Assembly: GCA_044892525.1 (NCBI GenBank)
Contig: CM097885.1
Location: 27,282,001-27,346,000 of the forward strand
Direction of reading: 5' to 3'
Source: Schmidtea polychroa
Taxonomy: Eukaryota
Length of the DNA: 64,000 bases
Shown one piece after another: positions 1 through 45,236 of this stretch. Numbering within the stretch: position 1 is the stretch's first letter; every line of letters begins with the position of its first letter. Position numbers and translations under genes: made by a program. The notes beneath the pieces are model-generated. The model ran no database searches. It saw nothing but the letters and a program-made list of their open reading frames with translations, and had not been told where the DNA came from.

Positions 1-3000
1 ACACATAATTCATTCCTCGTTGGAATGTAGCTGGGGCTCCTGTTAATCCAAATGGTAACACATTAAACTCATACAGTCCTTTGCCATCCGAGAACGCCGT
101 CTTTCCTCTATCTTCCTCTTTTACTCTAAATTGATTGTACCTTTTGTTTAAATCAATAACAGTGAAATATCGTGCCTCTCCCATTTGATCGAACATTTCT
201 TGAGGTACTGGAATTGGATAAGTGTCTTTCCTCGTAACTTGATTTAGCTTCCTATAATTTACGCAAAATCGTAAGTCTCCATCCTTTTTCTTAACTATCA
301 CTATTGATGAGAAGAATGGTGACGCACTATCTCGAATTATTCCAAATTCCTTCATTGCTGTAATCTGTCTATCACTTTCATCTTGATGAACGTAGGGGAT
401 TCTGTATGGCTTTATTTTTATTGGAGTTTCATCTAATAACGGTATTTCATGCTCAATTACATTGGTTAGACCTAAATCATATTCGTGTTTGGCAAAGATA
501 TCTCGGTATTTTCTCAACAGTTTTGTGAATTCCTTTTTCTGCATCTCATTTAAATCATTGCTTACCACTTCAGGCTCCTTGTACACCTTGACGTTTCTTG
601 GTATTTTACAATTTGTTTCAATAGACATTTTTGATAATTTTCCCAATTTTGTTTTTGGGTGTAACTGAACCGGTTTCTTACTGCTATTCGTTATATGGAC
701 TGGTACTATCTGATTTTCCACTTTAACAACTTCGTCACATATCGGTAAATCATATTTTTCGACTAGCGTTTGATTTGGTTCGAATATAAAATCACCATCA
801 TCCACACTCATGGTATTTGCACAATATACCATCTCCGATTGTGGTGGTATTGTCAATGTCTGATTCACAAACACTTCACCTGCCCTGTGAATTATTTCTC
901 CTGTTTCTCTTGCTATCAAATTACCTGTCTTTAAGTCAAGTGAGACTCCGTCCAGCTGCTCTAATATATCCATACCGATCAGACATCGTACTGGGCTTCC
1001 CTCCATTATGAGCGCATCGTGCGCTATTATTCGATCTCCAATATGGAATATGACGTTAAGTTGTCCAATTATGTTTAATTCATTTTTTGATAATGACCTC
1101 ACTATTTCGTCGGTAGGCTTTATTCGCATTTTCTCCTTCGCGTTTAATACATTTTCCGATATTATTGTGTGACTAGATCCCGAATCGACTAAAGCTTCCA
1201 CTTTATGTTTGTTCATTTGTATAAATATTCGGGGTTGCTTTCCTCTTTTTGTTAATGTCATCAATGAGTAGTTGCATGGTAAGCCTAACATATTTTTTCT
1301 CTCGATCTCTGCGCTAGAAGGCTCGATTCTCTCTCCTACCATTCCTTCACATTGTAATGCGATGTTTTCCACTGGTTTCATCTCTCGTAATCGATCAACT
1401 GGATACACTGGTGCTGGTTGCATAAATGATTTTGGTATACACAATTTTGTAAACGTGTCTACGCTACTCGCATTCAACAGTGGCTCTTGTAAGATTTGAT
1501 AAGTTCTCAACGCTTCTTTATTCATTCCACTTAGTTCTTGATTGTCAACATATAACGGTGCACTATCACCCTCGTTGTCATTGTCATTGTTCTCGTCTCT
1601 TGAAGGGGTAGTACTAGCGTAGCTCACCTTTTTCTTCTTTAATATTCTCGCTTTGAGTATCTCCAACTCCTGATATTGATGATGAGTAATGAAGAATCTA
1701 GCCAATAATGGTATGCAACCAATTACTAGTTTCCACGACCAACCTGTGATCGCGTATAATCTGTGTGTTGACAGGATCTGCGACATTATTACTTTGATTA
1801 CAACACATATTACATAAATTCCAATCAATCCGGCACATGCTTGTCCAATGAACATAAACTTTCCCCAGATCTTTTTCATTGTATTATACGTCGCTTTCTT
1901 GTAATGATATGGAGTTAACAAATACTCGTAATTTACCTTCCCACTTCCGCTTGGGAGAATTGTATCTACCATTTCCATTATTACTCTCTCTTTCTTTGAT
2001 GGAAATAACAAGTTTCTGCGAGCTTCCTCAATGTCTTCGCTCGAGTAAATTCCACTTTGCGACAATTTTTCCAACGACGTAGAATTTACCAGATATTGTA
2101 AATCTGTCAATTCTAAGTTTTTCGGTGTCTTTACTTCTCGATGATCTGGTAATGCAATCCAATATTCTGGTGTTAGTCTGTATAGTGGTGCCAACAATCT
2201 ATTGCATTGTAATACTTTCGGTTTCACGTCCTCTTCTAGTAAGATTCGTGTTACAGGCTCCATAAATCGCAACTTTCCATTTAAATTCACTGGTAACTCG
2301 TTGGTGCATTGGTCATACTTTGTCAGTTTAACTGGTACCGCTTTACATTTATAGCTATATAGTGCTTCACCGAAAATTCTGGCAAACACCCCATTTTCTG
2401 TAATTAACATTGGTGCTACCAAATTAGGATTGGTTATAGCCATTGCCATCCGATTTCGGAGTATTTCTTTGTTGAGATTGCAATCATTTATAATAACTTC
2501 TCGGTACACATTTTCAACAGTATTTTGACCAAAGTGAAATAAATAATCTATTTTGTTATTAAAGTAATTTGTCAACTTGATATCTCCGGCATGTATGTTT
2601 GTTTGGGCCTCTGTAATCATCTTCTGAGATACATATATACCTTTATAATTTGTCTCATAGACGTTTTGTCCACACTTTGTTTTAGTTTCTTTTCTCAGGA
2701 ATCGCATTCCATCTTCCTCCGAGGTTGACATTAACACTGTTGGAGTATCTTTCATCCGTAGAGGTGTGATTCTTGTTGTTGTACTCGTTGCTGGATCCAT
2801 TCTTATTTTCTCAGGCTTTTCCCTGATCTGTTCTCCCGTTATTTCTTTAAAGCTCATTGACTTCAATTGCACTAAATTGCACTTTTTGGTATCGACATCG
2901 TACACCAAGATTGATTCTCCTGTCTGACAGCTAGATTGTTTCATGTTGCAGAATGGATGTGTTTGTAGTTTACCAGTATCATCATCAAATGATCCATCAA

Positions 3001-6000
3001 ATTCTCTTAATTCTGACATGTACTCTTCCACAACCACGGCTTTGTCAATTATAGCATCGTCTACTTTGTATGGCTCTCCTTGGCAATCACCATTCGACTT
3101 TATTATCCCTCGCACGGTTACAGTCTCACGGATTTTATGGTTAAGCTTTGCTTGTAGTTTAATATCTGCATTGATTTTCAACTGTCCTGTTTGAAAGGAT
3201 GCCAAACAATTCTCTGGAATTATTTCTATCGGTCTAGGTATTGATTGCATTTTCACCATCGATGAGTGGCTCCATTTTCCACAATAAAATACAAAAGTAG
3301 TTCGTTTCACTGTACACTCTCTCACCTTTGCTCGTCGAAACCCCGACTCTTGATATACATGATATTTTACTGGATTTGTTACTTTAAATTTTACTGGATA
3401 TGCATCCGAACACTCTGCTACGTTTACCAACGAATATACTCTTCCCATTTCGGTTTGGGAGCAATCGTATGCCACCAATGAATTCGTCGTGTTTATTATT
3501 CCCAATAACATAATAATAGAAATCATCAACCATGGAAATGCGAGTTTTCCCTTTTTCCTCACCGTCTCTGGTTTTGGGCTCCCAGCCTTTTGTATCAACT
3601 TTTCCCATCCGCCATTGTTTGCGATCCACTTAGTCAAATATTTATTCGTCATTTCAGTAGCTTTCTTTATCAATGATTTTGAATTGTCACTTTCCAGACA
3701 ACCATAAATACCAATCTCCAATATTATATAGGCTAGCACTGTCAATATTACATCTCGATCCAACTCGGTTCGTGTTAGGTCCTCAATTACTGCTTCCTCA
3801 CAAAATTCCTTTTCTTCATAATTTCTTTTAATTATCGACGGTAATCTCTTCTTTAATTCCGTTGCCAATCTTTTTACAACTCTTTTCTCCCCCTCCGAAG
3901 TATCATCTTCTGTTTCAGTTTCATCTAACAAGTACAATTCCGTAACTAAACTTTTTAATATTCGCTCAGTCTCGCTTGATTCATCTAAACACTCAGTTTC
4001 GCTTGATTCATCTAAACGCTCAGTTTCGCTTGATTCATCTAAACTCAAAGATTCAATTTCCGCATCATTCTGTTTTTTCCGACACATCGCAATGTCATTT
4101 TTAGTTTCAACAAAGTTCTCTTCACTTTTCATCTCATCTATGCTCGGTAGTATCCTATTATCGGTGCTCATTTCCTCAACATCCCTTGTAACTTCATTTT
4201 CCGATCTCATTTCCTCATTTTCCATTGTTTCTAATCTCTGCAATTCATTAATTTCTCGATCAATTTCTCCTGGGTCATCTACAACTTCAGTTTTAATCTC
4301 CACATTATCATTGTCTTTTTCCTCATACAGAGGCCAAAACGGCACTATTACTGCATCTTTTTCCATTTCCTCACTTTGTTTTGTTGCGTACACATTATTA
4401 ATACAATTTGGGTTACATCCGTAGTTTAACAAATATTCATCATCATATAATTCTCGTCCTTTGAACGTCAACACGATAATTCCTTCATTACCTAATATCT
4501 CCGCTGCTTTTTGTCGTATTTTCTTTGCTTTTACACTCCAATGTTCCTGATAATATTCAATCCTTTGATCCGCAATATTTAACGCTATTATCAAAGATTT
4601 CGCACTATCGTCTGCCGCCTCATAATCATGTCCTAGTTTTCGAATTACCTCTTTTAACTTTGCCTGATAACTTGTCGGTTTATTTGTATACGGCACAATG
4701 CATTCAAACAACCCTTCTTTCATATCTCGATCCATTTCGATGCTCATTATGAAGTCGATACTCGCATTAATTTTATCTCTGTTCCCTGCATACAGGGTAT
4801 CTTGTAAATCTGCTAGCATCTTTCCCCAATTTTGTCTGTCTGAATTCAAAGTATTAACAGCATTAACAACATTTACTTTATTTTTCCAGCCTGGTATCAG
4901 ACCGCAATCTACCAAGTACTCCTCGTCTTCCAGACATCGATTCTCAAATTTTAGTTGCACTTGCCATCCACTGTATTGACGCAGTATTCGCTCCTTTAGC
5001 TCTCTAATTTGTCCGTAGGCATTTACACGGAATTGGCACTTCACATTATCAAGTCCCATCGTTTCCACTATGATATCAGCTATATCCCTTGTTGACCGTA
5101 AAGCTTTGCCAAACTTTTGCATTTGTTTAAGTATCTCATCGTCTCTGTTTCCTTTGAATAACTTTGCACATAAATTTATGGCTCTCTTTAGTTCGCCTTG
5201 GGTTAGTGACATCACACTGAGTTCTGCGATCCATCGTTTCAACTGGGAGTTGTCAGTTTCCATTTTCTCAAGCCATTTTTCAACTCGGGCTAACAGTGCA
5301 GTCGGATTCTCATCTGATGCAATTTTTCGCACTTTCGTAGCAGGTTTTCCCTCACCTTCTGACACGGTTCCAATTATCATATGAGATTCAGTTTCTTCAT
5401 CTGATTCGAATTTAGCCACTAGTTTGTTCAGCTTCTGTCGCATTTCTCGAAATTCCTTTTCCATTTTGTCTTGAAATTCCTCTCTCTGAGCATATGTCAT
5501 GTTGCTGGTGTTTGGCATATCTTCTTGGAATCTGATCGATTTCTTTAAAATAGGTCTGCTGAATCTTTCTGAGTTCCTTGGGCATGATCGCGCCATGTGG
5601 CCGTATCCCTTGCTCGAATGACATTGTATCTGTCCATTTGTATTCACTTTGTCCCTTTGTGGTGAAGGTGACGTTGACGATGATCTTGATCTGGTAAAAC
5701 AGTTTCTGCTAATATGCCCTTTCTTTCCGCATCGATAGCATTCGACATCACTGCTGATCCTTTTGTTATCTGTGAATCTCTTGTTAGGGCTGGGATTCTT
5801 CCCATATTTGAACCAACATTGATTTGAATAGTGTCCAGACTTTTTGCAATGTTCGCATTGAGGATTATTTACCTGTCCATTTGATTGTACATTCATGCCT
5901 GATCTACCTGTTTGAAATCTATTATTTGGTCTCAAAATTGGACTACTGATTTGATTTATTTTCTTTTCATCCCATGGTGCTCTCACAGGCGTAATTGATC

Positions 6001-6619
6001 GCTCACGTCTCTCCACATTAACTCCAAAAGCATCTGATCTTTTTGCACTTTTTAAATTCAACTCTATCTTCATGGCTTTCTTCACGAGCTCATCGAAATT
6101 GGAAAAATCCACATAACATAGGGCCTTTTTGATTTCGGAGTGGACTCCGGTTATAAACTGATCTTCTAACAGCTCTTTAACCTGCTTGGCCATATCTGCT
6201 TGATCTGGTTTGACTTCGAAGGCTTTATCTGCTAAATTGGTCAGATGATAAGCAAACTCACTGACCGATTCATCTGGACCTTGAACTCGATTATAAAATT
6301 TCTGTCGCATGATTCTTTTGATATCTCCACCAACCAGTTTCAGTGCCATTGCATCCTTCAATTTTGTCCAATCATTGCCAACATTTCGTTTGTCGACTTG
6401 CTGCCAGGCTTCTCTTGCCGCACCCTTCAGATAGAGTGGGAATCTCTGAACCATAATGGCTTGTGTCCATCGGTATGCTGAGACGTACATATAATAATCT
6501 CACATGAAATCTGCAAATTCAACAGGGTCTCCTCCATATTGATTGACGGGTAATTTCTGGCAACTTGCGAAATCAATCATCTCTCTATTGAGAGGCATAA
6601 CAGCATTATCATTTGCCAT
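1..6619 (-). CDS. Single-frame polyprotein Gag-Ubl-Ubl-Bcl2-like-Env(gB/chuvirus-type)-PR-RT, >2160 aa, 3'-truncated by window; one in-frame TGA at codon 40 (6500-6502)
   Basis: The ATG at 6619 (MANDNAVMPLNRE) and the RT motif VLPFGLTGAPATFQ at 61-20 share one frame. Hand-translated segments had no stop below 6500. The ORF track lists no closed ORF in this frame, as expected if it is open to the window edge. The next ATG is at 6490. Confidence 0.85.
1680..3541 (-). other. Envelope glycoprotein, chuvirus G / herpes gB-like (class III fusogen type), ~620 aa
   Basis: Hydrophobic signal AFPWLMISIIMLLGII, then LVAYDC, FYCGKWSHSS, GDCQGEPY, GEALYSYKCKAVPV, QCTNELPV, FMEPVTRIL, TM FMFIGQACAGLIGIYVICVVI and GWSWKLVIG. 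These motifs are recognised from chuvirus-like glycoproteins. Confidence 0.85.
3590..3970 (-). other. Bcl-2-family-like domain within the polyprotein
   Basis: BH2-like LTKWIANNGGWEKL (cf. Bcl-2 [14 protein letters not shown]). It is preceded at Bcl-2-like spacing by BH3-like VVKRLATELKKRL and a BH1/helix-5-like VIEDLTRTELDRDVILTVLAYII; the NWGR motif is not conserved. Confidence 0.65.
3965..4046 (-). repeat. 3x 27-nt in-frame tandem repeat encoding LDESSETE(R/C)
   Basis: The unit ctcagtttcgcttgattcatctaaac(a/g) occurs three times in an acidic linker. Confidence 0.9.
4384..4597 (-). other. Ubiquitin-like domain 2 within the polyprotein
   Basis: SLIIALNIADQRIEYYQEHWSVKAKKIRQKAAEILGNEGIIVLTFKGRELYDDEYLLNYGC; the LxFxGxxLxDxxxLxxYG pattern matches the ubiquitin-fold C-terminal half. 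Confidence 0.55.
4865..5077 (-). other. Ubiquitin-like domain 1 within the polyprotein
   Basis: DIIVETMGLDNVKCQFRVNAYGQIRELKERILRQYSGWQVQLKFENRCLEDEEYLVDCGLIPG aligns by eye with ubiquitin IFVKT...IENVKAKI...[21 protein letters not shown]. Confidence 0.65.
5580..6619 (-). other. Gag domain (capsid plus three CCHC zinc knuckles)
   Basis: Capsid-like FYNRVQGPDESVSEFAYHL and LLEDQFITGV; knuckles CEHCKKSGHYSNQC, CYRCGKKGHISRNC and a degenerate CHSSKGYGHMARSC. Confidence 0.9.
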
Positions 6620-6946
6620 TTGGACTTGTTTCTGACTTCTGAGGTTGTATCGGTTCACTTTGAGCTAAACTTCAAACGTTAAACAATAATTTAAAATTAC
6701 TTTTCAACTTCTTTTAAATCTCCCAATAATAGCCTTTTATATCTCTCTCGTTAACACTATTTCCACAAATTTTTCACTACTTTTAATGATTCTCAGGCGA
6801 CTTTCACTCACTTCTGTAGTACTTTTCCAATAATTAACTTTTCCACTAACTTCCAATAATTTTCCTCCGACATTCTATCACGTCGGTACTAATTCTTTTT
6901 ATAATTCCTTTTTCAGTAGCTTTCAATAACTTTCCTCCGACTTTGA

Positions 6947-6964
6947 ATCACGTCGGGCTCACCA
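6947..6964 (-). promoter_or_regulatory. Primer binding site complementary to tRNA-Trp 3' end
   Basis: Minus strand reads TGGTGAGCCCGACGTGAT, 7 nt from the LTR end; one mismatch to the canonical Trp PBS TGGTGACCCCGACGTGAT. Confidence 0.85.
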
Positions 6965-6971
6965 GAATATA

Positions 6972-8030
6972 TGTTGGGTTTTGGATTATTTCAAGTCGGT
7001 TCTCTCTGACTCCTGGTGTTCTTTAAATTAAAACAATGAACGACCCAACGTATATTGAAACAACAGGTTCACAAATTATTATCACTCTACAATTACCAAT
7101 CAAAGTTTTATACGATTCTCCGCTCGGCGTTGATGCTTTGCAAACAAACAATATTCACCTTTTGATCCTTTAGTTCTGTTGACTCTCGTTTTCCTCGGTT
7201 TCTGTTTGGTTTGATCCCTTTTCGCCTTTCCGTATTCTTAATTCTATTTCTTCTTTTCCCTACCTCCCTAATTCGTTTATTAACTTTTCCTATCGTCTGA
7301 TTCTTCGAACCCTAGCTGAGGCAGAATGCCGATTTTCTCTGATTTTCCCTTTGCTTATATACTCCTCGAAATCAGGATGACAAATGGTTATTGCCGAGCC
7401 AATCTTTCGTTTGACATTTTCTCCTACGTGTTTGCTTCGGCTGTCATCCATAATGGTCCAACGAATCCAGATAATTAATGGCCCTACCGGTCTTCCTACG
7501 CGCGCTATCTTCTCCTTACTCTTTTCCCATTAATCATTGTGTCAAACTAATGGGCCCAAATCTTCCTTTTGTTTGCCTTTCTTCTTGTTTACCCAGCTCG
7601 GGTTTCCTTTATCTATCGGGTTCTCCATTGGCTCGGGTTTCCCATTAGCTCGGGTTTTCCATTAGCCAATTAATTAATTAATTAACGTTTTCTGTTTTCA
7701 TACGTTTGAATGTTTTTCGACCCTTCCTAACCCTTTTCTGATAAATCCCTAACCATCATCTTGTTGACCATTAGCTACTCTATACCTGTCCCGTTTTTCC
7801 CATTCGATTTCGATGATTTTTCCATTTATTGATTTTTCTCGGATTTCCGGATTCTCGCCTTTCGTAATTGCCTTTTGCATTTTCTAATACTGTTTCCATC
7901 GCACTTTCCTTTACTATTAATTCTGTGCACGATCCCGCTTTTATTTGCCATTTTTCCTCGCTTACTTTCCAGTTGAATTATTATCCTAAATTTTATTTAA
8001 ATTTTTAATTTTAATTTACAGACCTCAACA
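6972..8030 (-). repeat. 5' LTR (~1059 bp)
   Basis: Bounded by TGTTG (6972) and CAACA (8030) and adjacent to the PBS; composition changes after 8030. The partner LTR is outside the window, so the outer boundary is inferred. Confidence 0.75.
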
Positions 8031-9820: not shown

Positions 9821-10055
9821 TATTAGGATTCTCATCCGTTTTTAAATCACTAAATAATTCCATAAAATTTTATTTAATAAAAGACATCTCAAAAAACTTG
9901 TCTGTTCTTATTTTTGTTATTTAAACAAATTTCAGATTTTCTTAAAATATTTCTTTGATAAATTTCTTCTTTTTAAAATATTTTTCAATAAAAATATTTT
10001 TAAAATTTTTACCAAATTTCTTATTAATCTTTAAGAATCTTTTAACTTCCTCATA
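9821..10055 (-). repeat. 3' LTR (235 bp)
   Basis: Near-identical to 14122-14356 with a few differences; follows the PPT. Confidence 0.9.
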
Positions 10056-13011
10056 TCCCCCTCCTTAAGAAATTTTTTAAGTTTTTCCACGTTTCTTTCA
10101 ATCTTTTTACCATTCTCGTTTCTTAAGATATATCGTCTGTCATGCACTTTCTCGATTACTTTATATGGTCCCTCATATCTGTCCTGGCTTTTGTTGCGTG
10201 TTTCTAATTTTACTAACACATCATCTCCTACGTCAAATTTCCTCCTTTTTTGTTCTTCTTGTTCTTCCTTTACCTGTTTTTCTTTTGACCCGTACCATTT
10301 CTCCCTGCTAATCTTTTTTCCAAAAACTATCTCTGCCGGGCTTATTCCTGTCGTTTTTTGTTTGGTTGCATTTAATGTAAATTCGACTTCTGGTAGTATC
10401 TCTGCCCAATCCGTCTTCCTTCTGTCTCGTAAAGTAGCATTTATCAGCTCTCGTATTGTCCTGAATTGCCTTTCTATCTGTCCATTTGTTTGGTGATGGT
10501 ATGGACTCGAAAAACATAACTTAATATCAAGTTTCTTTGTGAATTCTCTCAACATTCCTGATTCAAACGCCTTCCCACAATCAACTTTTATCTCCTTTGG
10601 GCACCCGAATCTTAAAATCCATTTTTCTAAAATCGATTTTTATTGTTTCTTCGTCTTGTCTTGTTATAGCTGTCAGTACTTGATACTTACTATACTGGTC
10701 TATTATACCCAATATATACTTCTTACGTCCTTTTGTTTCTTGCATTGGTCCACATATATCCACGAATATAATTTCGAACATTTCGGTTGATTCTAATTTT
10801 TTTACTGGTTCCTTCGTTGTAATTGTTATAGCCTTGGTTTTTTGACAAGTCTCACAACTTCGAATAGTTTCCTGAATCTGACTCCACAGGTTTTCCCAAT
10901 ATATCTATCTTTCATATAATCAGCTATCTTCTCGACTCCAGCATGACACAATAGTCTATGTATTTTCTTTATGGTTTCTTGTATCTCGTTTTCAGGTATC
11001 ATCGTTTTCTTTCGTAATTCTTCTTCCAAATTTATTTGTTGATTGGTGCTTCTACCTTCCTCTCTTATCGAGTCTAGTAATCTAGTTTTTATCTTTTCTT
11101 TCTTAGCTTCTTCGTGAGCCATTTGACATTGAACACACGTTTCACATTTAGTTCTGGACACCATGTCTGCATTTTGGTTATTAACACCCTTTCTATATTC
11201 AACGATTATATCCAAATTGCTCAAATAATTGATCCAGGTTTGGAATTGTGAAGTAATTGGCTTCTTGGTTTTCATCATAAACGTGATCGCCTTGTGGTCT
11301 GTCCTTAGTGTGAATCTTCTTCCGTAGAGATAGTGCTTAAAATGAATACAAAAATAGTATACCGCCAATAGTTCCTTCCTTGTAATGCAATATCCTTTTT
11401 CATGGCTCGTCATCGAGTGTGATCCATACGCAATTACTCTCTCCTTTCCATCTTGATCTCTTTGCGAAAGCACTGCTCCAATGGTATCAAAACTGGCATC
11501 AGTATCTAAAATGAACTCCTTTCTCAGATCCGGAAAGCATAGAATCGGTGCCGTTGTGAGTGCTAACTTCATTCCCTCGAATACGTTATTCGTTCCTTCA
11601 GTCCATTCCAGTTTTTTGTTACTCGAACCGCTACATAATTGTTCTAACATCCTTGATTTCTTTGCATACTCACTGATGAATCTTCTATAATAATTACAAA
11701 TGCCTAGAAAGCTTCGATGTTTCTTTACGCAACTTGGCTTCCCAAAGTTTTGTATAGCCTGAATCTTAGAAGGATCGGTTTTTACTCCTTCTTTACTGAT
11801 TATGTGTCCTAAGAATCTGATTTCTTTCTTTATTATTTGACACTTTTCTGGGTTAATCTTTAGTCCTGCTTCATCGATCGCTTTTAATACTTCACTGAGT
11901 ATTGTATAATGTTTTTCTTTACTATTCGAATAAATCAGAATGTCATCCAAATAGACCATTGCTCCATTTATTTTGCCTATTACCTTTGTCATCATTTCCT
12001 GGAACGTACCTGGTGCTGCAGCGATTCCGAACGGCATTCTATTGAAACAGTATTGCCCTTTCTTTGTTGAGAATGCTGTTTTCTCTTGCGATTCTTTGTC
12101 TAACTCCACTTGGTAATATGCATTACCAAGATCGATTGAGCTAAAATAAACGGACCCTCCTAACACATCTAACATCTCGTCTATGGTTGGCATTGGGAAT
12201 GCCTGCCTCTCTGTTACTGCATTCAGCTGTCTGAAATCCAAGCATAGCCTAATATCTTTTTTCTCTTTTTTCCATACGCAGATTAACGGCGTGTTCCATG
12301 GAGAGTTGCATTTCCGTATAATCCCGTTTTCGTACAAATTTTGTATTGCTTCTTCAATTTTTGTTTCCAAATTCAATGGTTGACGATATGGTTTTATGTT
12401 TATCGGTTCACCTCTTGTAATTATCTTATGTTTTACCAAATGCGTGCGACCCACATCCCATTTATCCGCCATAAACACGTTTCCACTGTTCGTTATTATT
12501 TCCTTCAATTTACTATCCTCATCAATCTTTAGATGTTCCAACGCTCGCGTCAATCTTTCTCCATCCTTTATTTGTCTGCCGAATTTTGCTTCAATGTTAC
12601 AAATATAGTTCTTGTCTTTTTCACTAGATTCGATATCTTTTTTTTTGTCAGCCTATATCCAAATGCTTCTTGTAATTCTACTCCTCCAATCACCTCTGGT
12701 GTCACTTTCTCCGCCACAATGAATCTAACTTCCTTAGAAATATCTCCGATAGTTACTTTAACCTTTGTTCTTCCAATTGTCTCTATCGTACTTTCGTTTG
12801 CACATCGTAACTTATCGTCACTTCTAATCAATTGTTGTCCTCGTAACTTGTTAAAACAGTTCACACTCATTAGATTTATTCGTGCTCCGGTGTCTAATAA
12901 ACACTCGAAAATTTCCCCATTCATCATTACTGTTACACTAGGTCTTCCCTGTAGCTTGTTATATACAATTTCTACCTCCTGCCCCGTTTCAATTGTTCCA
13001 ATTCTTTCCAC
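10031..13011 (-). pseudogene. pol (protease, RT, RNase H, integrase) broken by frameshifts
   Basis: ORF fragments contain LLDTGA (PR), YLDDILI (RT), FILDTDAS...TRKELLA (RH), FVDICGP and SSPYHHQTNGQIER...YEGPY (IN). Confidence 0.95.
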
Positions 13012-13118
13012 TTCCTCTTCAAACCTTTCTCTCCTTAGGAACCTGTATACTTTCTCACATACCCTTCCTACATTCTACCACTTTTCTACCCCTTGAGGAT
13101 ATCCCGTCCACTTTTCTG

Positions 13119-14123
13119 TTAGTATATGGCTCCAACCAACTCCTCTACTGGTGGAGCCCTTTTGTTTGGGCACGTCCTACTAAAATTATCTTCATTTGTC
13201 ACTACGCACGATTCCATTTCCTCTTCTTCTTCGATTCCATTAATCCGGCTGTATCTGTTTCCTGTCGGTCTTTGTTTCTCTATTGATTTCTTGTAACTCG
13301 ACTTTGTATAACATTCTTCTGATCTATGACCATTTTTGTTGCATCTTTTACACCGTATTTCTTGACATAACCTTCTTATATGGCCTTCTTTCCAACAACC
13401 AAAACAACTTGGCACTTTTTTATCTGGACAATTCCTACTGATATGTCCGCTTCTGTGACATGTCCAGCACTCTATCTTACTTCTTACTGGACATTCTATT
13501 TTCGTGTGGCCTATTTTGTGGCATAGCCAGCACTCTGGTTCTTCTCGTCGCCTGACTTCTTCTCTTTCATCTTTCTGCTTGTACTGTCCTCTTCTCTGTG
13601 GATCCTGATAGACCACTCTTGCATAACTTTTCAAAGCGTTTATCTGATCTCTCTGTTTGTCCACTTTATCCATCAAAATTAATGTTTCCTTTATCTCCTC
13701 TGTGCTTTTTATCTTCCGCAATATTACTTCTTTGCTGTTATTTTCTCTTTGGTGAATTATTTATTCTCAAACAACCTGTCAACAAGGTCCTCCACTTTTT
13801 TAAAATATGTTTCAATCTCTTCGCCTCTTCTTTTATAATTCAATAGACTTTCCATATCCTTTATTACGTCTCTTTCGTAATCAAATGCCATTCGTAACCT
13901 GGCTTGAAATCCTTCTGCTTTTTAAACCGTTTTCGTATATTTCTCCAATAGATCCTCGTCGATCATGCATGCGGTTAATCTTTCCTGTTCTTTTTTATTG
14001 ATGCCTTTAGCATCGAAATAGATCTCGGATCTTCTGATGAATTTTTTCAATTCATCACCTTGACAGAACACTTTTGGCAATAATCTTTCGGTAATCGCGT
14101 CGGTGTTTACCGCTGCCACCATA
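13119..14123 (-). pseudogene. gag with four to five CCHC knuckles, frameshifted
   Basis: ORF 13119-13721 has CWLCHKIGHTKIEC, CWTCHRSGHISRNC, CFGCWKEGHIRRLC and CKRCNKNGHRSEEC; the N-terminal part lies in ORF 13922-14164. Confidence 0.9.
14109..14121 (-). promoter_or_regulatory. Primer binding site, tRNA-Leu type
   Basis: TGGTGGCAGCGGT directly abuts the 5' LTR. Confidence 0.75.
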
Positions 14124-14356
14124 TTAGGATTCTCATCCGTTTTTAAATCACTAAATAATTCCATAAAATTTTATTTAATAAAACATATCTCAAAAAACTT
14201 GTCTGTTCTTATTTTTGTTATTTAAACAAATTTCAGATTTTCTTAAAATATTTCTTTGATAAATTTTTTCTTTTTAAAATATTTTTCAATAAAAATATTT
14301 TTAAAATTTTTACCAAATTTCTTATTAATCTTTAAGAATCTTTTAACCTCCTCATA
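14122..14356 (-). repeat. 5' LTR (235 bp)
   Basis: Direct repeat of 9821-10055, flanked by the PBS and the TSD ATTTT. Confidence 0.9.
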
Positions 14357-14839
14357 ATTTTATTTTTATTATTCGGGGATTTTTCCCAAAATGTTTTAGA
14401 AAAGTACATATTTTTGGTAATTCATTTATTGAATTATAATTAAAAACATATCTAACTCACATTTTTTCGAAAATATTCCAAAATACTTGCGTACTACACG
14501 CGTAAACACACAATTCAATCGGCCGAAACAGAAGTTATCACTATCATCATCAGGTTACCTACATTCACTAGGGATGAATAACTATACAATATTAAAAGAA
14601 TGAGAACTTTTTTCCAATTTCACCACTGATTATTTTTTCCATTCAATTTATTAAAAAGAGAGCTTGAAGACTATAAATCAGTAATATATCGATGTTTTTT
14701 GAGTAGGTAGATAGTGGCCTACGGGAACAATTACCCCCCCCCCGGGGGGGGGGGGTTTGTTCCCAAATTTTTATTACGCAATTGTTCCCAACTCATTTTT
14801 TTGCTTTCAGGGATTTTTGGTCCAAATTTTTTTTTATCA

Positions 14840-15290
14840 CACTATAGTGAGAGGGTCTTGATGGTCCTGGGAATTTCTATACAAAAATCCGACTATCAAT
14901 AAAAAAGTCAAGGATTATTCACACTATAGTGAGGGGGTCTCGATGGTCCTGGGATTTTCAATACAAATAAAATTTTTTCTATACAAAAATCCGACTATCA
15001 ATAAAAAAGTCAAGGATTATTCACACTATAGTGAGGGGGTCTCGATGGTCCTGGGATTTTCAATACAAATAAAATTTTTTCAATACAAAAATCCGACTAC
15101 CACTAAAAAAGCCAAGGATTATTCACACTATAGTGAGGGGGTCTCGATGGTCCTGGGATTTTCAATACAAAAAATTTTTTTCAATACAAAAAGCTGGTCT
15201 ACACTAAAAAAGCCAAGGAATTTTCAGACTATAGTGAGGAGGTCTCGATGGTCCTGAGAAATAGGTGGTCTACACTAAAAAACGTGGTAA
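14840..15290. repeat. Subterminal ~102-bp tandem repeats (left arm)
   Basis: cacactatagtgagggggtctcgatggtcctggga recurs at 14920, 15022 and 15124. Confidence 0.9.
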
Positions 15291-15294
15291 ATTT

Positions 15295-15895
15295 TTCAAT
15301 TACAGTAAATTACGGTCCAAATTTTTCAATTAAAGTAAATAATGGTTCTAAAAATTAAATTAAAGTTAATTATGGCTCAAATTTTTCAAATAAGGTAATT
15401 ATGGTTCTAAAAAATTAAATTAAAGTAAATTAAGGTCCTAAAAATTAAATTATAGTAAATTATGGCTCAAATTTTTAAATTACAGTAAATTATGGTCCTA
15501 AAAAATTAAATTACAGTAAATTATGGTCAAACATTTTAAATTAAAAAAAACAATGGTTCAAATTTTTCAAATACAGTAAATTATGGGTCTAAAAATTAAA
15601 TTACAGTAAATAATGGTTCTAAAAATTAAATTAAAGTAAATTATGGTTCTAAAATATTAAATTACAGTAAATTATGGTCCAGATTTTTCAATTAAAGTAA
15701 ATAATGGTCCAAATTTTTAAATTAAAGTAAATTTAAGTTCTTAAAAATTAAATTACAGTAAATAATGGTCCAAATTTTTAAATTAAGTAATCAATGGTAA
15801 AAAATTTTAAATAAGTAAATTAAAGTACTAATTTTTAAATTAAGTAATCAATGGTAAAAAATTTTAAATAAGTAAATTAAAGTAAGATTTTAAAA
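15295..15895. repeat. ~30-bp AT-rich tandem array (mirrored at ~29790-30505)
   Basis: Repeated unit resembling ttacagtaaattatggtccaaatttttcaa. Confidence 0.85.
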
Positions 15896-16179
15896 TTTAA
15901 TTACAAAATAATAGAAGGTGTTTGAGAATTGAAATTTTTTAATGAAAATTTTTATGAAATAATTTTTAAGTAATTTTTAATAGAAATTTTAATGAAATAT
16001 TTTTCAATGGTAATTTTTAATGGAAATTTTTATGGAATAATTTTTTAAGTAATTTTTAATGTAAATTTTTATGAAATATTTTTCAATGATAATTTTAGAT
16101 GGAAATTTTTAAGATAATTTTTAATGAAAATTTTTATGACATATTTATCAAAGACAAATTTTAATAATAATTCAACAAC

Positions 16180-17710
16180 AAACCAACAACTTAGTACCAA
16201 CAACCAGTAACTTACGAACATATATTAACAACCAGATACCTACAACTAGTTACTAACAACTAGTTACATGATACTAAGTAAATACAACCACCTAACAAGT
16301 ACTAACAACCAAAAACAAGCAACCAACCAGGTACCAGTTACCAACTACTAAGTACCTACAACCAACTAGTTACCTGATACCAAGTACTTACAACTAAATA
16401 CTAACAACCAGTTACCTGATACCTAGTACTTAAAACTAGTTACTAACAACCAAAAACAAGCAACCAACTAGCTACCAAGTACTAACAATCAAAAACAACT
16501 AGCTAACAACTAGATACCAAGTACCTACAACCACCTACCTATTAACTAGCTACCAAGTACTAACAACTAACAACAACCAGGTACTAGATACCAAGTACTA
16601 ACAACCTACAACAACTAGGTACTAAGCATTATCAACCAAGTACCTAAAACCACCTAACAAGTACATACAACCAACATCAACCAGGTACCTACAACTAGAT
16701 ACTAACAAACAGTTACGAAGTACCTACAACCACCTACCCATTAACTAACTACAACCAGCTAACAACTAACAACCAGATACCTACTACTTACAACCAACTA
16801 CTAAGTACTAACAACCACCTAACAAGTACATACAACCAACATCAACCAAGTACCTAAAACCACCTAACAAGTACATACAACCAACATCAACCAGGTACCT
16901 ACAACTAGATACTAACAAACAGTTACGAAGTACCTACAACCATCTACCCATTAACCACCTAACAAGTACCTACAACCAACTACTAAGTACTAACAACCAA
17001 AAACAACCAACTAGGTACTAGATACCAAGTACTTACAACAAACATCAACCAAGTACTTACTACCAACTACCAAGTACTTACAACTAGTTACTAACAACTA
17101 GTTACCTGCTACCAAGTACTTACAATTAGTTACTAACAACCAGTTACCTGATACCAAGTACCTACAACCAACTACTAAGCATTAATTACCTACAACTAGT
17201 TACTAACAACTAGATACCAAGTACTTACAACCAACATCAACCAGGTACCAGTTACCAACTACTAAGTACCTACAACCAACTAGTTACCTGATACCAAGTA
17301 CTAACAACCTACAACAACTAGGTACTAAGCATCATCAACTAACTACTAAGTACCTACAACCTACAACTAGATACTAAAAACCAGTTACCTGCTACCAAGT
17401 ACTTACAACTAGTTACTAACAACCAACCAACTAGGTACTAGATACCAAGTACTAACAACCAACAACAACCAGGTACTAAGCATTATCAACCAACTACTAA
17501 GTACCTACAACCAACTAACAACCACCTACCAAGTACTAACAACCAGTTACCAACTACTAAGCATTAATTACATACAACTAGTTACTAACAACTAGATACC
17601 AAGTACATATAACCAACAACTAAGCATTATCAACCAAGTACTAACAACCAAGTAACTTACCTAGTACTAAGCACTGTCAACTAGATACCAAACACTTACA
17701 ACCAGATGAC
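16180..17710. repeat. Strand-asymmetric A/C-rich scrambled satellite (mirrored at ~28405-29460)
   Basis: Shuffled short words acaacc, aagtact, aactag and gatacc. Confidence 0.9.
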
Positions 17711-17977
17711 CACATGAAATTATTGGTTAAATATGAAAATAAGGATTATATTTAGTTGTTTAGTAAATTATGGTGTAAAATTAAGAAATAAAGAATAATT
17801 AGGTAAATTAAGGATAAGTAAATTAAAGTTAAAAATTTTAAATTAAAGAAAACAATGGTTCAAAATTTAAATTAAAGCTAAAGTAAGATTTTTAAATTTA
17901 TTATCAAAAGATTGAATAACCACCAACTTTTTTGAGAAATGTAATTTATAATGAAAATTTAAATGGAAATTTAAATG

Positions 17978-18019
<42 letters not shown>

Positions 18020-18436
18020 TACTAATAATTCAACAGTTACCAACAATCGGTTACTGATTATTTTTTAACTAGGTGCTAACAAATACTTACACCATGATAC
18101 CACGTACTAACTAACTCTCAAACAACCAGATACTTACAACTAACTACTAAATATTCTTTATTGTATTTTATGAAATGCTTTTTAAATTAATTTTTTATCT
18201 ATCTTCAAAAATATATTTAATTACAATCATTAGAAAAACCTTTTCAAATTTAACAAAAATGTTGATTTTCATCAAAAAAACCACAACTCATCACCACGTG
18301 GAATTCAAAATAATTACAATGAAAGACTAATGAAATCTAATTTACAAAACATTCTTCTTTTAAATGATAACTTATTATTGCAATGTAAAAATCGCATTCA
18401 ATAAAAACTTATTGTTGATCAGTTTTATTATATATA

Positions 18437-21400
18437 CTCTGAGTTTATCCGACAGGATGTTTTGACCCCCTAAGGGTACAGGTCGTAAGGGTACTGGTCG
18501 TAAGGGTATTAGTCGTAAGGGTACTAGTCGTAGGGGTATTGGTAACACTCAACCCCCATCTACCCATTAACCACCTAACAAGTACCAACAACCAAGTCTC
18601 AAACAACTAAATACTAAACACTAACAACCAACAACAACCAGACACTAAGCATTATCAACCTACAACTATATAACAACAATCAGTAAACAACACTGTACCA
18701 ACTACCAAATACAAGAAACCAACAACTTAGTACCAACAATCAACTAACAACACATAAAAATAATAGCAATTAAATAAAAAAAATTATTCTTCATCGCATA
18801 CACTATTTTCTTATCAAAATCTAAAAAGTCAACCAACTACTTACAACCAACAACTATGTACTAACAAATTGATCTTTAAAAGCAAATACTCATCACTTGA
18901 AAAAATTAGATGAAAAATTAATTGAACTCAAGGCACTTTTAAGATATTTGAACTCAAGGCATCAATAACTTGGTAAAAATTGATTAAATTATTGTAAAAA
19001 TTTAAATTATTCAAAATATACTAAATTAAAAAAAATATAATTAATGGACAAGAAAGAACTTTAAATTCTAGTCATTGATCATTCAAGTTAATATGAATCA
19101 ACTAAGATAATAAATTAATAAGAATTTTGAAATAAGATCTAGTAGATAATTGATTTAGATTGAATAAATTAATTGAAATAAAATTAATTTTAATTATTTT
19201 TTTTTAAAAGTAATACATGTACTCAAATTGATTGACTGATTTCTCAATATATTCAAAAAATCTGTATGAATTCATTACAATTATCAAAGTCAGCAATCTA
19301 CAATAAAAATAATTATCATTAAATTTCAAAAGAGACTAGAAAACTAATGATAAAATCTATCAAACCAGTAAATTCATTTAAATGACAATAATTGGTATAT
19401 CCAAGTGAATTCTCTAATAAAATCATCTAAAAAGCATCAAATTTCCCTGAAATATCTATATCTTTTAAGATTAGTATCTTATCGATAAGTACTTGTTAAA
19501 GATCATATATTCACCTCAAACTAACAAGATTCCTTAAAATCCCTTAAATGGCTATATTTCAACCCTTAATTCGTATTATTACAAATATCATCTAAAAAGC
19601 ATCAAATTTCATTGAAATAACTCTATCCTTAAAGATTGATATTTTAATGACAAGTACCCTTAAAAGGTTATATATTTACCTCAGACTAATAAGATTGCTT
19701 AAAATCCCTTAAATGACTATAATTCTAACTTTAATTCGTATTATCACGAATATTTCCCTATAAAACATGTAAAATCATTAACCCTAAATAATTTATAAAA
19801 TCTAATGATAAAACTGGTTATAATTAATTTTTTGTTAATCACTGTACTCGATATTTTAAATAAATATTACTACAATATAACTGACTAGGTCCCATTGAAA
19901 GATTAAATTTATCCATTCAATAAAATATATTTCTTCAAATGATCATTTTTACCAATATTCAACCGATTTAATTACTAATTAAAATCAAGATTCCTTCCAA
20001 TAAAGATCAATTTTATTTAGTCGATGTTTTAAGTCCATATTTCTAAACTTTTGTCATTCTCCGCCTAAATAAAGATAAAAATAAATTAAAGTTGATATCA
20101 ATCCCATTTATCTGTAAAGTTTTCATCGTCAAAACCAAGTAAATCGACATTGTTCTAAAACATAAATCTAAATTCATATACAATGAATTAATCACAACCT
20201 AATAAAACAATATAATTATTATTGATACATAACTGACTAATTGACATTTCCCTTAAAACATTGATATTTTACCAACAGCATACTTAAAAAATCATATATT
20301 CCCATCTTAACCCATCTCTCATTAAATTCAATCGACTATATCCCCCTTACAATGATATATTCCCAACTTATCTGATCTCTCATTAAAATCAATCGACTAT
20401 ATCTCCCTTACAATGATATATTTCCATCTTATCTGATCTCTCATTAAATCTAACCGACTATATCCCCTTAAAAAATCATATATTCCCACCTTATCTGATC
20501 TCTCATTAAATCTAACCGACTATATCCCTTTAAAAATCATATATTCCCATCTTAACCCATCCCTCATTAAATCTCACCGACAATATCCCATCTTATCCGA
20601 TCTCTCAGCAAATATTTCTACCCCCCTCATTAAATTTAACCGACAATATCCCATCTTATCCGATCTCTCAGCAAATAATTCTACCCTTTTAAACATCTAT
20701 CCGATTATATCCCTTATTTTCCCTAAAGATTCCGCCCACTTGAGCCCTTTAATATATATCAATCCTCTTAAAATCCTCAGAGAAATTCAAAAATATGACT
20801 TTTAATTAATTGTTATAGAACCAGACAAATAATAAGAGCCCATTAAAAGATCAAAATTCACTAAATTTTCTACAAATATTTACCATCAAATACTGGAGAT
20901 GATATATATTGATTGATCATAATTCTTCATCGATTCAGCCAATCATTTTCAAGCAATAACAGCAAACTAAATTTCTTTATATCCTACAATAATTATCACG
21001 TAAATTTAAAGTCATTGATAAAGTTGGTTTCTTAGCTTATGTTTTTTAAAGATCATCAATGTGTAAATATTCTTAGAAAATTATTGAAAAATTATTTATT
21101 CAAATATATTACAAAGTTATCATCAGAAATTTATTCTATCACTTAATTATTAACCTAATTGTCAATGAAATTAATTTTTATTTAAAAACTATTCAATAAA
21201 ATACAACTAATTATCAAGAAATTAATTAAATTTATCAATTAAATTTATCACCATTAAAACTTTTAATCAGTCAACATGAAATTCTTAGAAAATTATTCAA
21301 TATCCTCATCAAAATTTATCCTACCACTTGATTATTGTACAAACTTTAATTATTAACCTCATTAAAAATAAATTTTTATTTAAAATTAAAAAACAAGTCA

Positions 21401-21831
21401 ATAAAAATACATTCAATTATCAAGAAATTAATTAAATTTACCTTAGAATTAGCATTAAATTACAGATATTCACAAAAATTACGGAAATTCATGAAAATAA
21501 TGGAAATTCACAAAAATAATAGAAATTCACAAAATTGATAAAAATTCACAAAAAACGATAAAAATTCACAAGAATGATAGAAATTCACAAGAATGATAAA
21601 AATCCACAAGAATAATAGAAATTCACAAAAAAGATAGAAATTTACTTGAATAAAACCATCAACTCTAAAATTTATCAATGAATGCCTTATACAAATTTGC
21701 CTAAATAATCATTCAAATAAAAACATTAAATACCTTTACGACTAATACCCTTGCGACATGTTGAATGTGAGTAGTACCCTTGTGAGCAATACCCATAGGG
21801 GGACAGAATATTTTGTCGGATAAACTCAGAG
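18437..21831. mobile_element. Nested non-autonomous TIR element in left arm (TA-flanked, Tc1/mariner-like)
   Basis: Ends CTCTGAGTTTATCCGACA...TGTCGGATAAACTCAGAG with TATATA on both sides; 15-bp subterminal repeats taagggtactggtcg. Confidence 0.65.
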
Positions 21832-24005
21832 TATATATTAATTAACTCATTTTTCATTGAATCAGTCAAATTATCATAAATTTCGATAAAAATTCTAAAG
21901 TGGTAAGCAATGTAAAGAGAAATATTCTTTAAACTTTGATAAAATTAACAATGAAGGTGGTAAGAATCTTCATTAAAGTGAGGAAATTATTCATTACTCG
22001 ATTCAAATGGGTGAAAATAATTGGTAGAATAATTCATTAATGGATCATTGAATGGGCATAGATAAGAAGAAAGTTGATAAGAATGGAAATATATTAATTG
22101 AATTTATTTAAAATTATTTCATAAAATTCATAAATTTAATAAAAAAAAGAAATATTTGTGGGGAATAATTAATCAAAATCGGCGGAATATAAGTAGAAAA
22201 TCGGGGTGGGGGGTTATAGGCGAATAATTAATGGAAATTCGAGGGGATATAAGTGAATAACTAATGGAGAATCGGGGGGGGGGGGGAATATAGGGATTAA
22301 ATAGTAGAGAATAATAGTGAATATAAGTGAGGAGGATATATAATTTAAGCTAGTTTATTACATAACAAGCCGTGACTAGTCTATTACATAACAACCCGCG
22401 TCTAGTTTATTACATAACAAGCTGTGAATGGTATTTTATTGAAAATTATTGATTAGGTCTTTTTTATAATTTTTGAATAAGTACTTTAATACCTTAATAA
22501 TTTAAATGTTTTGATTTACACTAAATAATTTCTAAATCAATTACCCTTTTCAATCAAAATAAGATCAATTATATACCTTTTTATAAAATTCAGTTAAAAT
22601 TAAATACTTTCCACTAAATTTAAAATATATAAATTTTATAAGTTTTTCAAATTTTCAAATAATGTAAATAAGAAATTAATCTATTACCAGTTACATACTT
22701 ATTGACGGAATTACGTAATAGAAATAAAAAGTAACTTAGGTTATTTTTTTTTCAAAATTATGACTAAGTCCTTTAATATTGTAATAATAGCTATTTATTA
22801 ATAAATTTATTATTTTACGTTAACTATTTCAAAAACAATTATCATATTATTAATTATATTACCCTTTTTAATCAAAATAAGATAACTATTCAAATAGATG
22901 ATTTTTATAAATTACAATAAAAATTAAATACTTTTACACTAAATTTAAAAATATAAATTTTATAAGTAAATGTGAATAAGAAATAAGTGTATTATCAGTT
23001 ATAGACTTTTAAAACTTATTGATTAGATATTAAAAGTTACTTTTTTTTCAAAAAGTCCTCTAATATTGTATTCTATTCATTATTAAATTTACTATTTTAC
23101 ACTAAAATATTTTAATTTAGAAAACAATCATCATAATATTAAATATGATACTTCAATCAAAATAAGTTAATACTCAAATATTTGTCTTATAAAATACAAT
23201 CAAAATTAAATACTTCACAAATTTTAAGTAAAGTTTTTTAAATTCTCAAATAAATGTTAACAAGATATTAATTTAATAATCATTATATACTTTTTAAACT
23301 TATTATTGGAATAAAACAATAGAATGATATTGAAAATATATACAATTTTAAAATATAATTAAAATTAAATTACATACTTTAAAAATTTAGTAAAATGTTG
23401 GTAAAATACCATTCACAGCTTGTTATGCAATAAAATAGTCGCGGGTTGTTATGTAATAGACTAGTCACGGCTTGTTATGTAATAAACTAGCTTAAATTAT
23501 ATATCCTCCTCACTTATATTCACTATTATTCTCTACTATTTAATCCCTATATTCCCCCCCCCCGATTCTCCATTAGTTATTCACTTATATCCCCTCGAAT
23601 TTCCATTAATTATTCGCCTATAACCCCCCACCCCGATTTTCTACTTATATTCCGCCGATTTTGATTAATTATTCCCCACAAATATTTCTTTTTTTTATTA
23701 AATTTATGAATTTTATGAAATAATTTTAAATAAATTCAATTAATATATTTCCATTCTTATCAACTTTCTTCTTATCTATGCCCATTCAATGATCCATTAA
23801 TGAATTATTCTACCAATTATTTTCACCCATTTGAATCGAGTAATGAATAATTTCCTCACTTTAATGAAGATTCTTACCACCTTCATTGTTAATTTTATCA
23901 AAGTTTAAAGAATATTTCTCTTTACATTGCTTACCACTTTAGAATTTTTATCGAAATTTATGATAATTTGACTGATTCAATGAAAAATGAGTTAATTAAT
24001 ATATA

Positions 24006-27000: not shown

Positions 27001-27540
27001 TAATTTAAATTTTTACAATTATTTAATCAATTTTTACCAAGTTATTGATGTCTTGAGTTCAATTAATTTTCCATCTAATTTTTCAAGTGATGAGTATTTT
27101 CTTTTAAAGATCAATTTGTTAGTACATAGTTGTTAGTTGTAAGTAGTTGGTTGACTTTTTAGATTTTGATAAGAAAATAGTGTATGCGATGAAGAATATT
27201 TTGTATTTAATTGCTATTATTTTTATGTGTTGTTAGTTGATTGTTGGTACTAAGTTGTTGGTATCTTGTATTTGGTAGTTGGTACAGTGTTGTTTACTGA
27301 TTGTTATATAGTTGTAGGTTGATATTTGTTAATTTCTCGATGGGTTTTGATGGTGGTTGTTAGTAGTTGTTGTTTGAAACCTAGTGGTTAGTACTTAGTA
27401 GCTAGTTAATGGATAGGTTGTGGTTAAGTGTTACCAATACCCCTACGACTAGTACCTTTACGACCAGTACCCTTACGACTAATACCCTTACGACCTGTAC
27501 CCTTAGGGGGGTCAAAACATCCTGTCGGATAAACTCAGAG
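24006..27540. mobile_element. Mirror copy of the nested TIR element in right arm
   Basis: Same TIRs at 24006 and 27540; carries an extra ~155-bp internal repeat unit near 26380-26540. Confidence 0.65.
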
Positions 27541-27975
27541 TATATATAATAAAACTGATCAATAATAAGTATTTATTGAATGTGATTTTTACTTTGCAAT
27601 AATAAGTCAGTAGTTATCATTTAAAAGAAGAATGTTTTGTAAATTAGAATTCATTAGTCTTTCATTGTAATTATTTTGAATTCCACGTGGTGTTTTAAAG
27701 TGGTTGAGTTGTGGTTTTTTGATGAAAATCAACATTTTTGTTAAATTTAGACATTTTGAAAAGGTTTTTCTACTGATTGTAATTAAAATTATTATAGAAG
27801 CTGTATAAAAAATATTAATTTAAAAAGCATTTCATAAAATACAGTGAAGAATATTTAGTAGTTAGTTGTAAGTATCTGGTTGTTTGAGAGTTAGTTAGTA
27901 CGTGGTATCTAGTTGTAAGTATTTGTTAGCACCTAGTTAAAAAATAATCAGTAACCGATTGTTGGTAACTGTTGA

Positions 27976-28045
<70 letters not shown>

Positions 28046-44547: not shown

Positions 44548-44913
44548 TTTATCTATTTCTATATTTGATTTCTGTTTTTATTTCAAGTTATTTTTATTTT
44601 ACTAATAGTTTATTATGTCAAATAGTAAGGAAAGTTATATTTATTATATTTTAAATTTATTTCATTGGATACAAAAATATAAAAATGAAAAAATTGTAGA
44701 TAATTCAAAACTATGTATAAAAACAATTAAATGATAATTTAAGCCTTTTGCTGCGAAAAATATATTTAATACAAATGAAAAAATTTTCGATTATAAGATA
44801 GTCCTTTTCAATTCAACTCTCCCCTGGTGTATTATTTAGATTTAATAATTTATGAGAATAAGATTATTCTGAGTACTCTTGAAGATGTACAAAAAGCATT
44901 ATTCAATCTATAT

Positions 44914-45128: not shown

Positions 45129-45236
45129 ATCTATATGGAGATGGAGTCAAAATGAGATATGGCTTGATTTCTAATTTATTACGTAAAATGAATTAATGTT
45201 TTTATAGTGATAATAAGAAATTTAAATACTTTATAA

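Follow-up and report, generated by a model that had tools for sequence, protein, structure and literature searches.

Burro and GYPSM1 are giant gypsy-like LTR retrotransposons of planarians, reportedly described by Jurka in 2007. Planarian Burro elements carry a ubiquitin- or SUMO-like motif before BCL-2, and their env is located in frame between BCL2 and the protease (PMC6431247, Arkhipova and Yushenova 2019); the same source credits the BCL2-like motif of Burro-2, -3 and -4 to Grohme et al. 2018 and calls for experiments on such domains. Stem-cell protection and anti-apoptotic activity have been ascribed by Lee et al. 2026 (Dev Cell), as related at second hand in the accessible portion of PMC13465017, to the BIR-RING region of Burro1 (B-IAP) and not to BCL2; the available text of PMC8532177 treats Burro expression without mention of Bcl. 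The Burro literature searched, which stops short of the full texts of Grohme 2018 and Lee 2026, contains no test of the BCL2 domain and no mention of a signal-peptide anchor. By the present analysis the BCL2 module is a more constant cargo across Burro-type lineages than the IAP module.

The window (the whole stretch of 64,000 nucleotides that was analysed) contains most of a copy of a high-copy gypsy LTR retrotransposon of 17,243 bp that continues past the window start, in which a Bcl-2 domain is encoded by a single ORF in the order Gag, ubiquitin-like, Bcl-2, in-frame Mononegavirus-type env, PR, RT, RH and IN. The novelty of such cargo implied by the initial annotation does not hold, as a BCL2-like motif between the ubiquitin-like domain and an in-frame env is published for planarian Burro (PMC6431247); the Bcl-2 cargo is a published feature of Burro-type elements, and on sequence comparison the 17.2-kb family is a compact Burro relative. 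The single-polyprotein order, from Gag-CCHC through the ubiquitin/SUMO-like and BCL2-like domains and the in-frame env to PR, RT, RH and IN, is shared with Burro/GYPSM1, as is the high copy number; pairwise identity to a Burro1-like element of the same genome is 34-39% in env, 29% in the post-protease region (E 6e-17) and 51% in RT. The element differs from Burro1 in size (17.2 kb, 1.06-kb LTRs and an ORF of ~3,330 aa, versus >30 kb and 4,873 aa), and Pfam finds in its two ORF parts no match to the MATH, ankyrin or BIR modules of Burro1/GYPSM1. For the dUTPase-like region that is a Burro trait between PR and RT, Pfam gives no dUTPase match, and the corresponding region of the element is homologous to that of the Burro1-like element (29%, E 6e-17). 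The 17.2-kb family may or may not be one of Burro-2, -3 and -4. B-IAP is similar in being an apoptosis-related host cargo in a Burro element, however it is a BIR-RING region while only a Bcl-2 domain is found here; since the compact family has the Bcl-2 domain without a BIR module, it would allow the two modules to be distinguished.

The ORF occupies window positions 2-6490 (-), is open at the window start and ends in the adjoining stretch, L031, where Pfam places the rest of RT, RNase H and integrase; its full length is ~3,290-3,330 codons (3,290 counted stop to stop). In the window copy, an in-frame TGA stands near the beginning of gag (6500-6502). The features of gypsy (Metaviridae) elements are all present: paired TG...CA LTRs with boundaries read from flanking sequence, a primer site (the pattern has 6 exact matches), a polypurine tract, a short target duplication (4 bp, AATA) and the PR-RT-RH-IN order. 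The ubiquitin-like match is also seen in the relative P0007 (E 0.0046), the acidic linker shows a 27-nt length difference in other copies, and the env transmembrane segment is placed by hydropathy at aa 1551-1569. The 781-Mb genome holds 1,156 candidate matches to the Bcl-2 domain; all 150 that were scored are 92-100% identical to it, with an internal stop in 12 of the 150. The C-terminal part of the same ORF (L031 6627-9998 (-)) features, after the integrase, a second hydrophobic segment (aa 745-763 of that part), a ~320-aa domain that Pfam does not match well and, at aa 1082-1100, a last transmembrane segment; the ~320-aa region is possibly a second luminal glycoprotein, judging from this arrangement. 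The polyprotein of lineage B (see the table) likewise ends in a transmembrane segment.

Table. Features of the 17.2-kb element in the window and lineages of the same genome carrying a related domain
Feature	Position or locus	Strand	Basis
Aspartic protease (aa 1751-1848), spacer, start of RT	2..1240	-	Pfam
In-frame env, Monjiviricetes-type fusion glycoprotein	1592..3478	-	PF24664 E 6.9e-92
Putative internal env signal peptide and candidate Bcl-2 membrane anchor (basic stretch, hydrophobic core, small residues at -3/-1)	3479..3559	-	Pattern; putative cleavage site
Bcl-2-fold domain, ORF aa 839-969	3584..3976	-	Pfam, profiles, AF2 model, structure searches
Predicted domain layout: helix 1 (BH4-like), helices 2-4, central helix 5 from the BH1 equivalent, helices 6-8 with BH2	3584..3976	-	AF2 model
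BH2 motif WIANNGGW	3605..3628	-	Sequence and alignment
BH1 equivalent DRDV replacing NWGR (Trp, Gly and Arg all changed)	3749..3760	-	Alignment with host and camel Bcl-2
Acidic linker that adjoins the Bcl-2 domain on its N-terminal side and contains three short repeats of 9 residues	3977..4419	-	Sequence
Ubiquitin-like domain	4895..5071	-	PF00240 E 0.0018, below cut-off
Gag	5696..6442	-	Pfam: retrotrans_gag aa 17-102, CCHC knuckle aa 250-265
Primer-binding-site-like sequence, begins TGG	6943..6964	-	7 nt inside the 5' LTR
5' LTR, TG...CA, 1059 nt	6972..8030	-	99.4% identical to the 3' LTR at L031 788-1845
Lineage A2	L081, L082		PF00452 E 7.8e-6
Lineage B	L063-L067		PF00452 E 1.5e-6
Burro1-like element	L084, L087, L090		Bcl-2 domain placed by position, BH2 and alignment

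The domain in the window has, with near certainty, the Bcl-2 fold. The initial annotation had proposed a Bcl-2-like domain inside the retrotransposon polyprotein at 3590-3970 (-); this interval encodes 127 aa without stops and contains the stretch that had been quoted, ending WIANNGGWEKLI. The suggested check against Pfam PF00452 does return a match for the single window sequence (E 0.004), however at 18.1 bits it falls below the gathering score of 31.4. The best PDB sequence match of the domain is human Bcl-2 (E 0.037), all 37 of its PDB sequence matches are Bcl-2 or Bcl-2/Bcl-xL chimeras, and its top ESM Atlas rows are BCL2L15/BID (0.91-0.92), with recognition below the tool's mark. As the single sequence is marginal, relatives were gathered without using cellular Bcl-2. 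An element-only profile of 7 rows matches Bcl-2/Bcl-xL at E 7.2e-5 and one of 17 rows matches Bcl-xL at E 1.5e-7, all 60 matches listed for the latter being Bcl-xL or Bcl-2; PF00452 is found at E<=0.01 in 12 of the 17 profile rows, the sister lineages score 26.8 and 29.1 bits, and the relative P0009 reaches the cut-off (31.4). A word-index search for Bcl-2 cargo within long proteins gave 0 of 190 candidates with the single domain as query and 2 of 890 (P0015 and P0017) with the profile.

Through AF2 modeling on the 17 element-only rows, an alignment with zero cellular Bcl-2 rows, the domain is predicted to have seven helical segments (pLDDT 78.4, pTM 0.74) that form a helical bundle around hydrophobic helix 5. 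The best match of this model in a wide structural search is Hydra Bcl-2-4 (6wgz; Z 13.9, rmsd 3.1 Å, 134 residues); Bcl-2-fold proteins fill ranks 1-36 of the 50, and the highest-ranking different fold has Z 5.9. The 40 matches listed by Foldseek are all Bcl-2 family members, the best at E 1.8e-3 with probability 1.0 and zero at E<=0.001, and the TM-score against Bcl-2/Bak/Mcl-1 chains is 0.53-0.69. The model resembles the pro-survival Bcl-2 of cells (Z 13-14) more closely than it does A52, N1, A46 and B14 (Z 6.1-7.4). A first AF2 model from 7 rows (pLDDT 55.9, helix 1 unformed), which gave 0 Bcl-2 rows of 50 and a best Z of 5.7, was superseded by the 17-row model. The AlphaFold/Foldseek comparison had been set beforehand as a possible refutation; the model is a Bcl-2 helical bundle, and the claim of a Bcl-2-like domain inside a retrotransposon polyprotein is upheld by both the element-only profile and the predicted structure.

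The domain shares helices 1-8, BH2 and a hydrophobic segment behind the fold with cellular (Hydra Bcl-2-4, Bcl-xL, Trichoplax Bcl-2L2) and viral (M11L, BHRF1, A179L) Bcl-2 proteins; it differs from these in being 12-20% identical, in having neither NWGR nor the BH3 Gly-Asp, in its location inside a polyprotein and in having a putative env signal peptide as the segment. The BH2-like motif first noticed in the window is borne out, with the pattern W-I-x-x-x-G-G-W exact, and it is conserved: WIxxNGGW is retained in 21 of 24 element copies, GGW in 12/14 lineage rows and the first Trp in 10/14. The loss of NWGR was likewise read correctly; the canonical BH1, with its groove Gly and Arg, is absent from the window domain, where the aligned equivalent is DRDV, and across the 14 lineage rows the BH1 Trp is found in none and the Gly in one, while Lys/Arg is found at the Arg position in 12 and Val in the window lineage and its sister A2. 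In canonical pro-survival Bcl-2 the BH1 Arg pairs with the BH3 Asp. As for the BH3- and BH1-like helices described upstream, a BH1 equivalent is indeed present, at a distance of 44 residues from the BH2 Trp as against 45 in camel Bcl-2, however the BH3 pattern L-x-x-x-[GAS]-D occurs in 0/14 lineage rows, 4 of the 14 being too short for helix 2. The likeness to Bcl-2 seen in CLES/CVES is probably coincidental, since the Cys is ~5 residues out of register and absent in the sister lineage, and the local alignment has six gaps. Just upstream of its Bcl-2 domain, lineage B has a helix that resembles BH3 by an eye match to the BH3 pattern (AERLRDIANNM, L063 2803-2910 (+)), with Asn for the expected Asp.

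The basic-then-hydrophobic tail reported behind the domain is present, with a Kyte-Doolittle peak at aa 983-1001, however its pattern marks it as a probable internal env signal peptide; the hydrophobic core stands directly before the env start motif in 10/10 rows holding both BH2 and the env start, 25-59 residues from BH2, with a small residue at -1 in 9/10. A hydrophobic segment is found where a C-terminal anchor would be, but coincides with the putative env signal peptide, which may anchor the Bcl-2 domain to the ER. The Bcl-2 domain precedes env in 10/10 testable lineage rows. Together with the env transmembrane segment, the putative signal peptide suggests a topology in which Gag through Bcl-2, and also pol, would face the cytosol and env would enter the ER lumen; helix 5 in the window lineage is as hydrophobic as a transmembrane segment.

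Three further lineages in the same genome have the domain in an equivalent place, making four in all; identity to the window domain is 37-38% for A2 and about 19% and 18% for the other two, and the Burro1-like domain alone gives no PF00452 match in Pfam. The 7-row profile has 11 matches among 1.84 billion representative proteins, ten of them element-like and the eleventh camel Bcl-2; seven of the ten have either a Pfam match to env or a Gag knuckle together with ubiquitin, while P0009, P0010 and P0014 are short pieces without env/Gag context. The proposed phylogeny against host Bcl-2 paralogues was built from 24 rows (14 element lineages, 8 host exons, 1 Polinton gene and camel Bcl-2), omitting one of each near-identical pair (L069, L067, L087), duplicate host loci and the spliced Polinton type; it places the 14 element lineage rows on one side of a branch with support 98/97, in a tree that has long branches and in which ten rows were ascertained with the element profile. 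The element domains on one branch fit one old capture. The branch nearest to the element side joins host L044 with Polinton L055 (90/81, not starred); it was considered as a pointer to the donor gene, but no donor is claimed. A host Bcl-2 gene of canonical type, with NWGR, is also present in seven near-identical copies within a single region of the genome (L033-L039, C4 89.95-90.83 Mb).

Sequencing runs X7, X10 and X14, labelled organism B and from three studies, contain the 17.2-kb element family (window 2600-5000 as query). One 12.5-kb organism-B contig spans window 2600-5000 with 80 changed letters and one 27-nt gap (~96.6% identical), which falls within the spread among copies of the window's genome (93-99.6%); horizontal transfer between species is possible, as is mislabelling or contamination.

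Recent constraint on the Bcl-2 domain is weak. Among 24 copies from the env-ranked list (a choice that lowers the env value), and with variants common to at least 2 copies, pN/pS is 0.43 in the Bcl-2 domain (15 non-synonymous and 9 synonymous variants; test against neutrality P 0.044), 0.05 in env, 0.14 in the upstream region and 0.30 in the acidic linker; constraint on the domain is lower than on env (Fisher P 8e-5) or on the upstream region (P 0.045), and no difference is seen from the acidic linker (P 0.79). The copy-level selection check yields a lean to synonymous changes like that of the linker. A pN/pS of 0.15 from 34 copies was set aside as selection-biased, because 29 of the 34 had been chosen by protein similarity of the Bcl-2 domain itself. 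Identity between lineages A and A2 is 37% in the Bcl-2 domain, 54% in the protease and 69-74% in env; this fast divergence and the weak pN/pS indicate that the domain is kept, but loosely.

As a whole the locus is best explained, with about even chances and by way of sequence, model and analogy, as a captured host Bcl-2, ER-anchored and of viral type, that would raise the death threshold of the expressing cell. The ancestor of the env-bearing gypsy elements of Burro type in planarians would have taken up a host-derived Bcl-2 domain a single time, far in the past, and the polyprotein would have kept it directly before env. The hydrophobic segment would act as a signal peptide taking env into the ER, presumably cut by signal peptidase; after cleavage the Bcl-2 domain would be found on the cytosolic ER face, where the signal helix would hold it in much the way that the tail holds cellular Bcl-2, and the element protease may release it from Gag; from inspection by eye, no protease site around the domain is claimed. 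The domain would then act like viral Bcl-2 against death from env load in the ER and from DNA breaks at integration; as NWGR is gone, this is proposed to occur through a non-canonical groove or other surface. The likely signal-peptide anchor and the loss of groove residues predict an ER location and non-canonical ligands. The account starts from the observed fold, position, single branch and hydrophobic segment behind the domain, and what it says beyond fold and position is inferred.

According to the accessible part of PMC7022251, Bax/Bak are sequestered even by viral Bcl-2 proteins, such as M11L, that show no sequence likeness; anchoring in the membrane is of importance, and planarians possess Bak and Bcl-2 and release cytochrome c. 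A further point for a pro-survival role is that the Burro1-like element of the same genome also carries a BIR-RING ORF. Plausible objections to it are the altered groove residues for BH3 binding, as read from the alignment, and the weak recent constraint; loss of the BH1 Gly is taken, in the part of PMC8998228 available, to make a working BH3 groove unlikely. A signal-peptide anchor, too, would point to the ER and not to mitochondria. Prediction of a complex between the Bcl-2 domain and a Bak-like BH3 stretch of the host (L112, 35 residues) gave no informative answer (score 0.01, with the alignment unused and a tool not validated on peptides); the stretch was chosen by scanning for the motif upstream of a Bak-like exon, and Pfam gives no Bcl-2 match for the stretch itself.

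It is unlikely, though well worth considering, that the fold was kept while apoptosis control was lost, the domain instead modulating innate-immune, autophagy or stress signalling via a non-groove surface in the manner of poxviral A52, B14, A46 and K7. The lost BH1 Trp/Gly and BH3, the fast divergence of the domain and the MATH/TRAF and ubiquitin-like modules carried by Burro polyproteins would all suit such a change, for which poxviral Bcl-2-fold proteins provide a precedent (PMC7022251, in its accessible part); however the well-kept BH2, and a model that lies closer to pro-survival Bcl-2 than to A52, N1, A46 and B14, argue otherwise. Quite unlikely is a decaying relic in the window lineage, which must only stay in frame since env and pol are translated behind it. 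The pN/pS indistinguishable from that of the acidic linker is what connects the domain to this fate, together with the loss of the BH1 Arg, which is confined to the window lineage and its sister, and the lowest Pfam score among lineages A, A2 and B; against decay, lineages with an identity of just 37% have retained the length, the pattern of helices and BH2, and the lean to synonymous changes persists (P 0.044).

A slim chance is given to a structural role, in which the Bcl-2 bundle with the cleaved signal helix would be a matrix-like tether of the Gag precursor at the ER beside env during budding. The domain has a fixed place between Gag and the env signal in 10/10 testable rows while MATH, ankyrin and BIR modules come and go, the topology would keep Gag attached to the signal helix unless cut, and helix 5 of the window lineage is hydrophobic like a transmembrane segment; the tether is nonetheless wholly conjectural, weak recent constraint is atypical of a virion structural domain, and the linker between domain and anchor varies from 25 to 59 residues. 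Of similarly small probability is the proposal that the Burro clade reuses a captured Bcl-2, tethered to the ER by the env signal peptide, not as a BH3 sponge but as a component that is matrix-like or shapes membranes and links Gag to env, or adjusts ER stress, while an infectious particle is assembled; if true, such a role would mean that a retrovirus-like element has put the Bcl-2 fold to a new structural use, of which no description was found in the literature searched. A chance likeness of a helical linker to BH2 is very improbable and largely refuted, as the marginal single-sequence scores and the first 7-row model (pLDDT 55.9) that matched no Bcl-2 are outweighed by the element-only profile (E 1.5e-7), by a deeper model without cellular Bcl-2 rows that matches the fold over its whole length, and by the relative P0009 at the Pfam cut-off.

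Polinton/adintovirus Bcl-2 cargo is likewise a mobile-element Bcl-2, and the same genome has such genes (L055, L070-L072); these differ in being stand-alone small genes in DNA elements, some apparently spliced, and L055, the one placed in the tree, lies outside the branch of the retroelements. A lancelet adintovirus Bcl2 is also listed in BFVD. Small Bcl-2 genes of two kinds, both dispersed and multicopy, one with an apparent short intron and the other of 152 aa, are found at L048-L062 and L070-L072 (chromosomes C1-C3) among Polinton-like genes for an A32-like ATPase, an integrase and a TBP-like ORF; the unspliced Polinton Bcl-2 gene groups with host L044 (92/89). The Burro1-like element (L083-L090) has MATH and ankyrin in its polyprotein and separate downstream ORFs, TRAF-like of 487 aa and BIR-RING of 392 aa; all 150 candidates scored for BIR in the same genome are matches, mostly in frames of 392-393 aa.

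The window also contains, at 10031-14170 (-), a second gypsy element, frameshifted, with gag, protease, RT and integrase pieces and, from translations, no evident env or Bcl-2. Two large nested inverted-repeat structures occupy 14744-31664 and 40981-61186; the arms at 19419-22283 and 23554-26418 (2865 nt) are 100% complementary, as are those at 43333-45495 and 56660-58822 (2163 nt). Each 2163-nt arm features an ORF of 287 aa whose Cys/His pattern is RING-like, and the region between the arms contains Polinton-like fragments.
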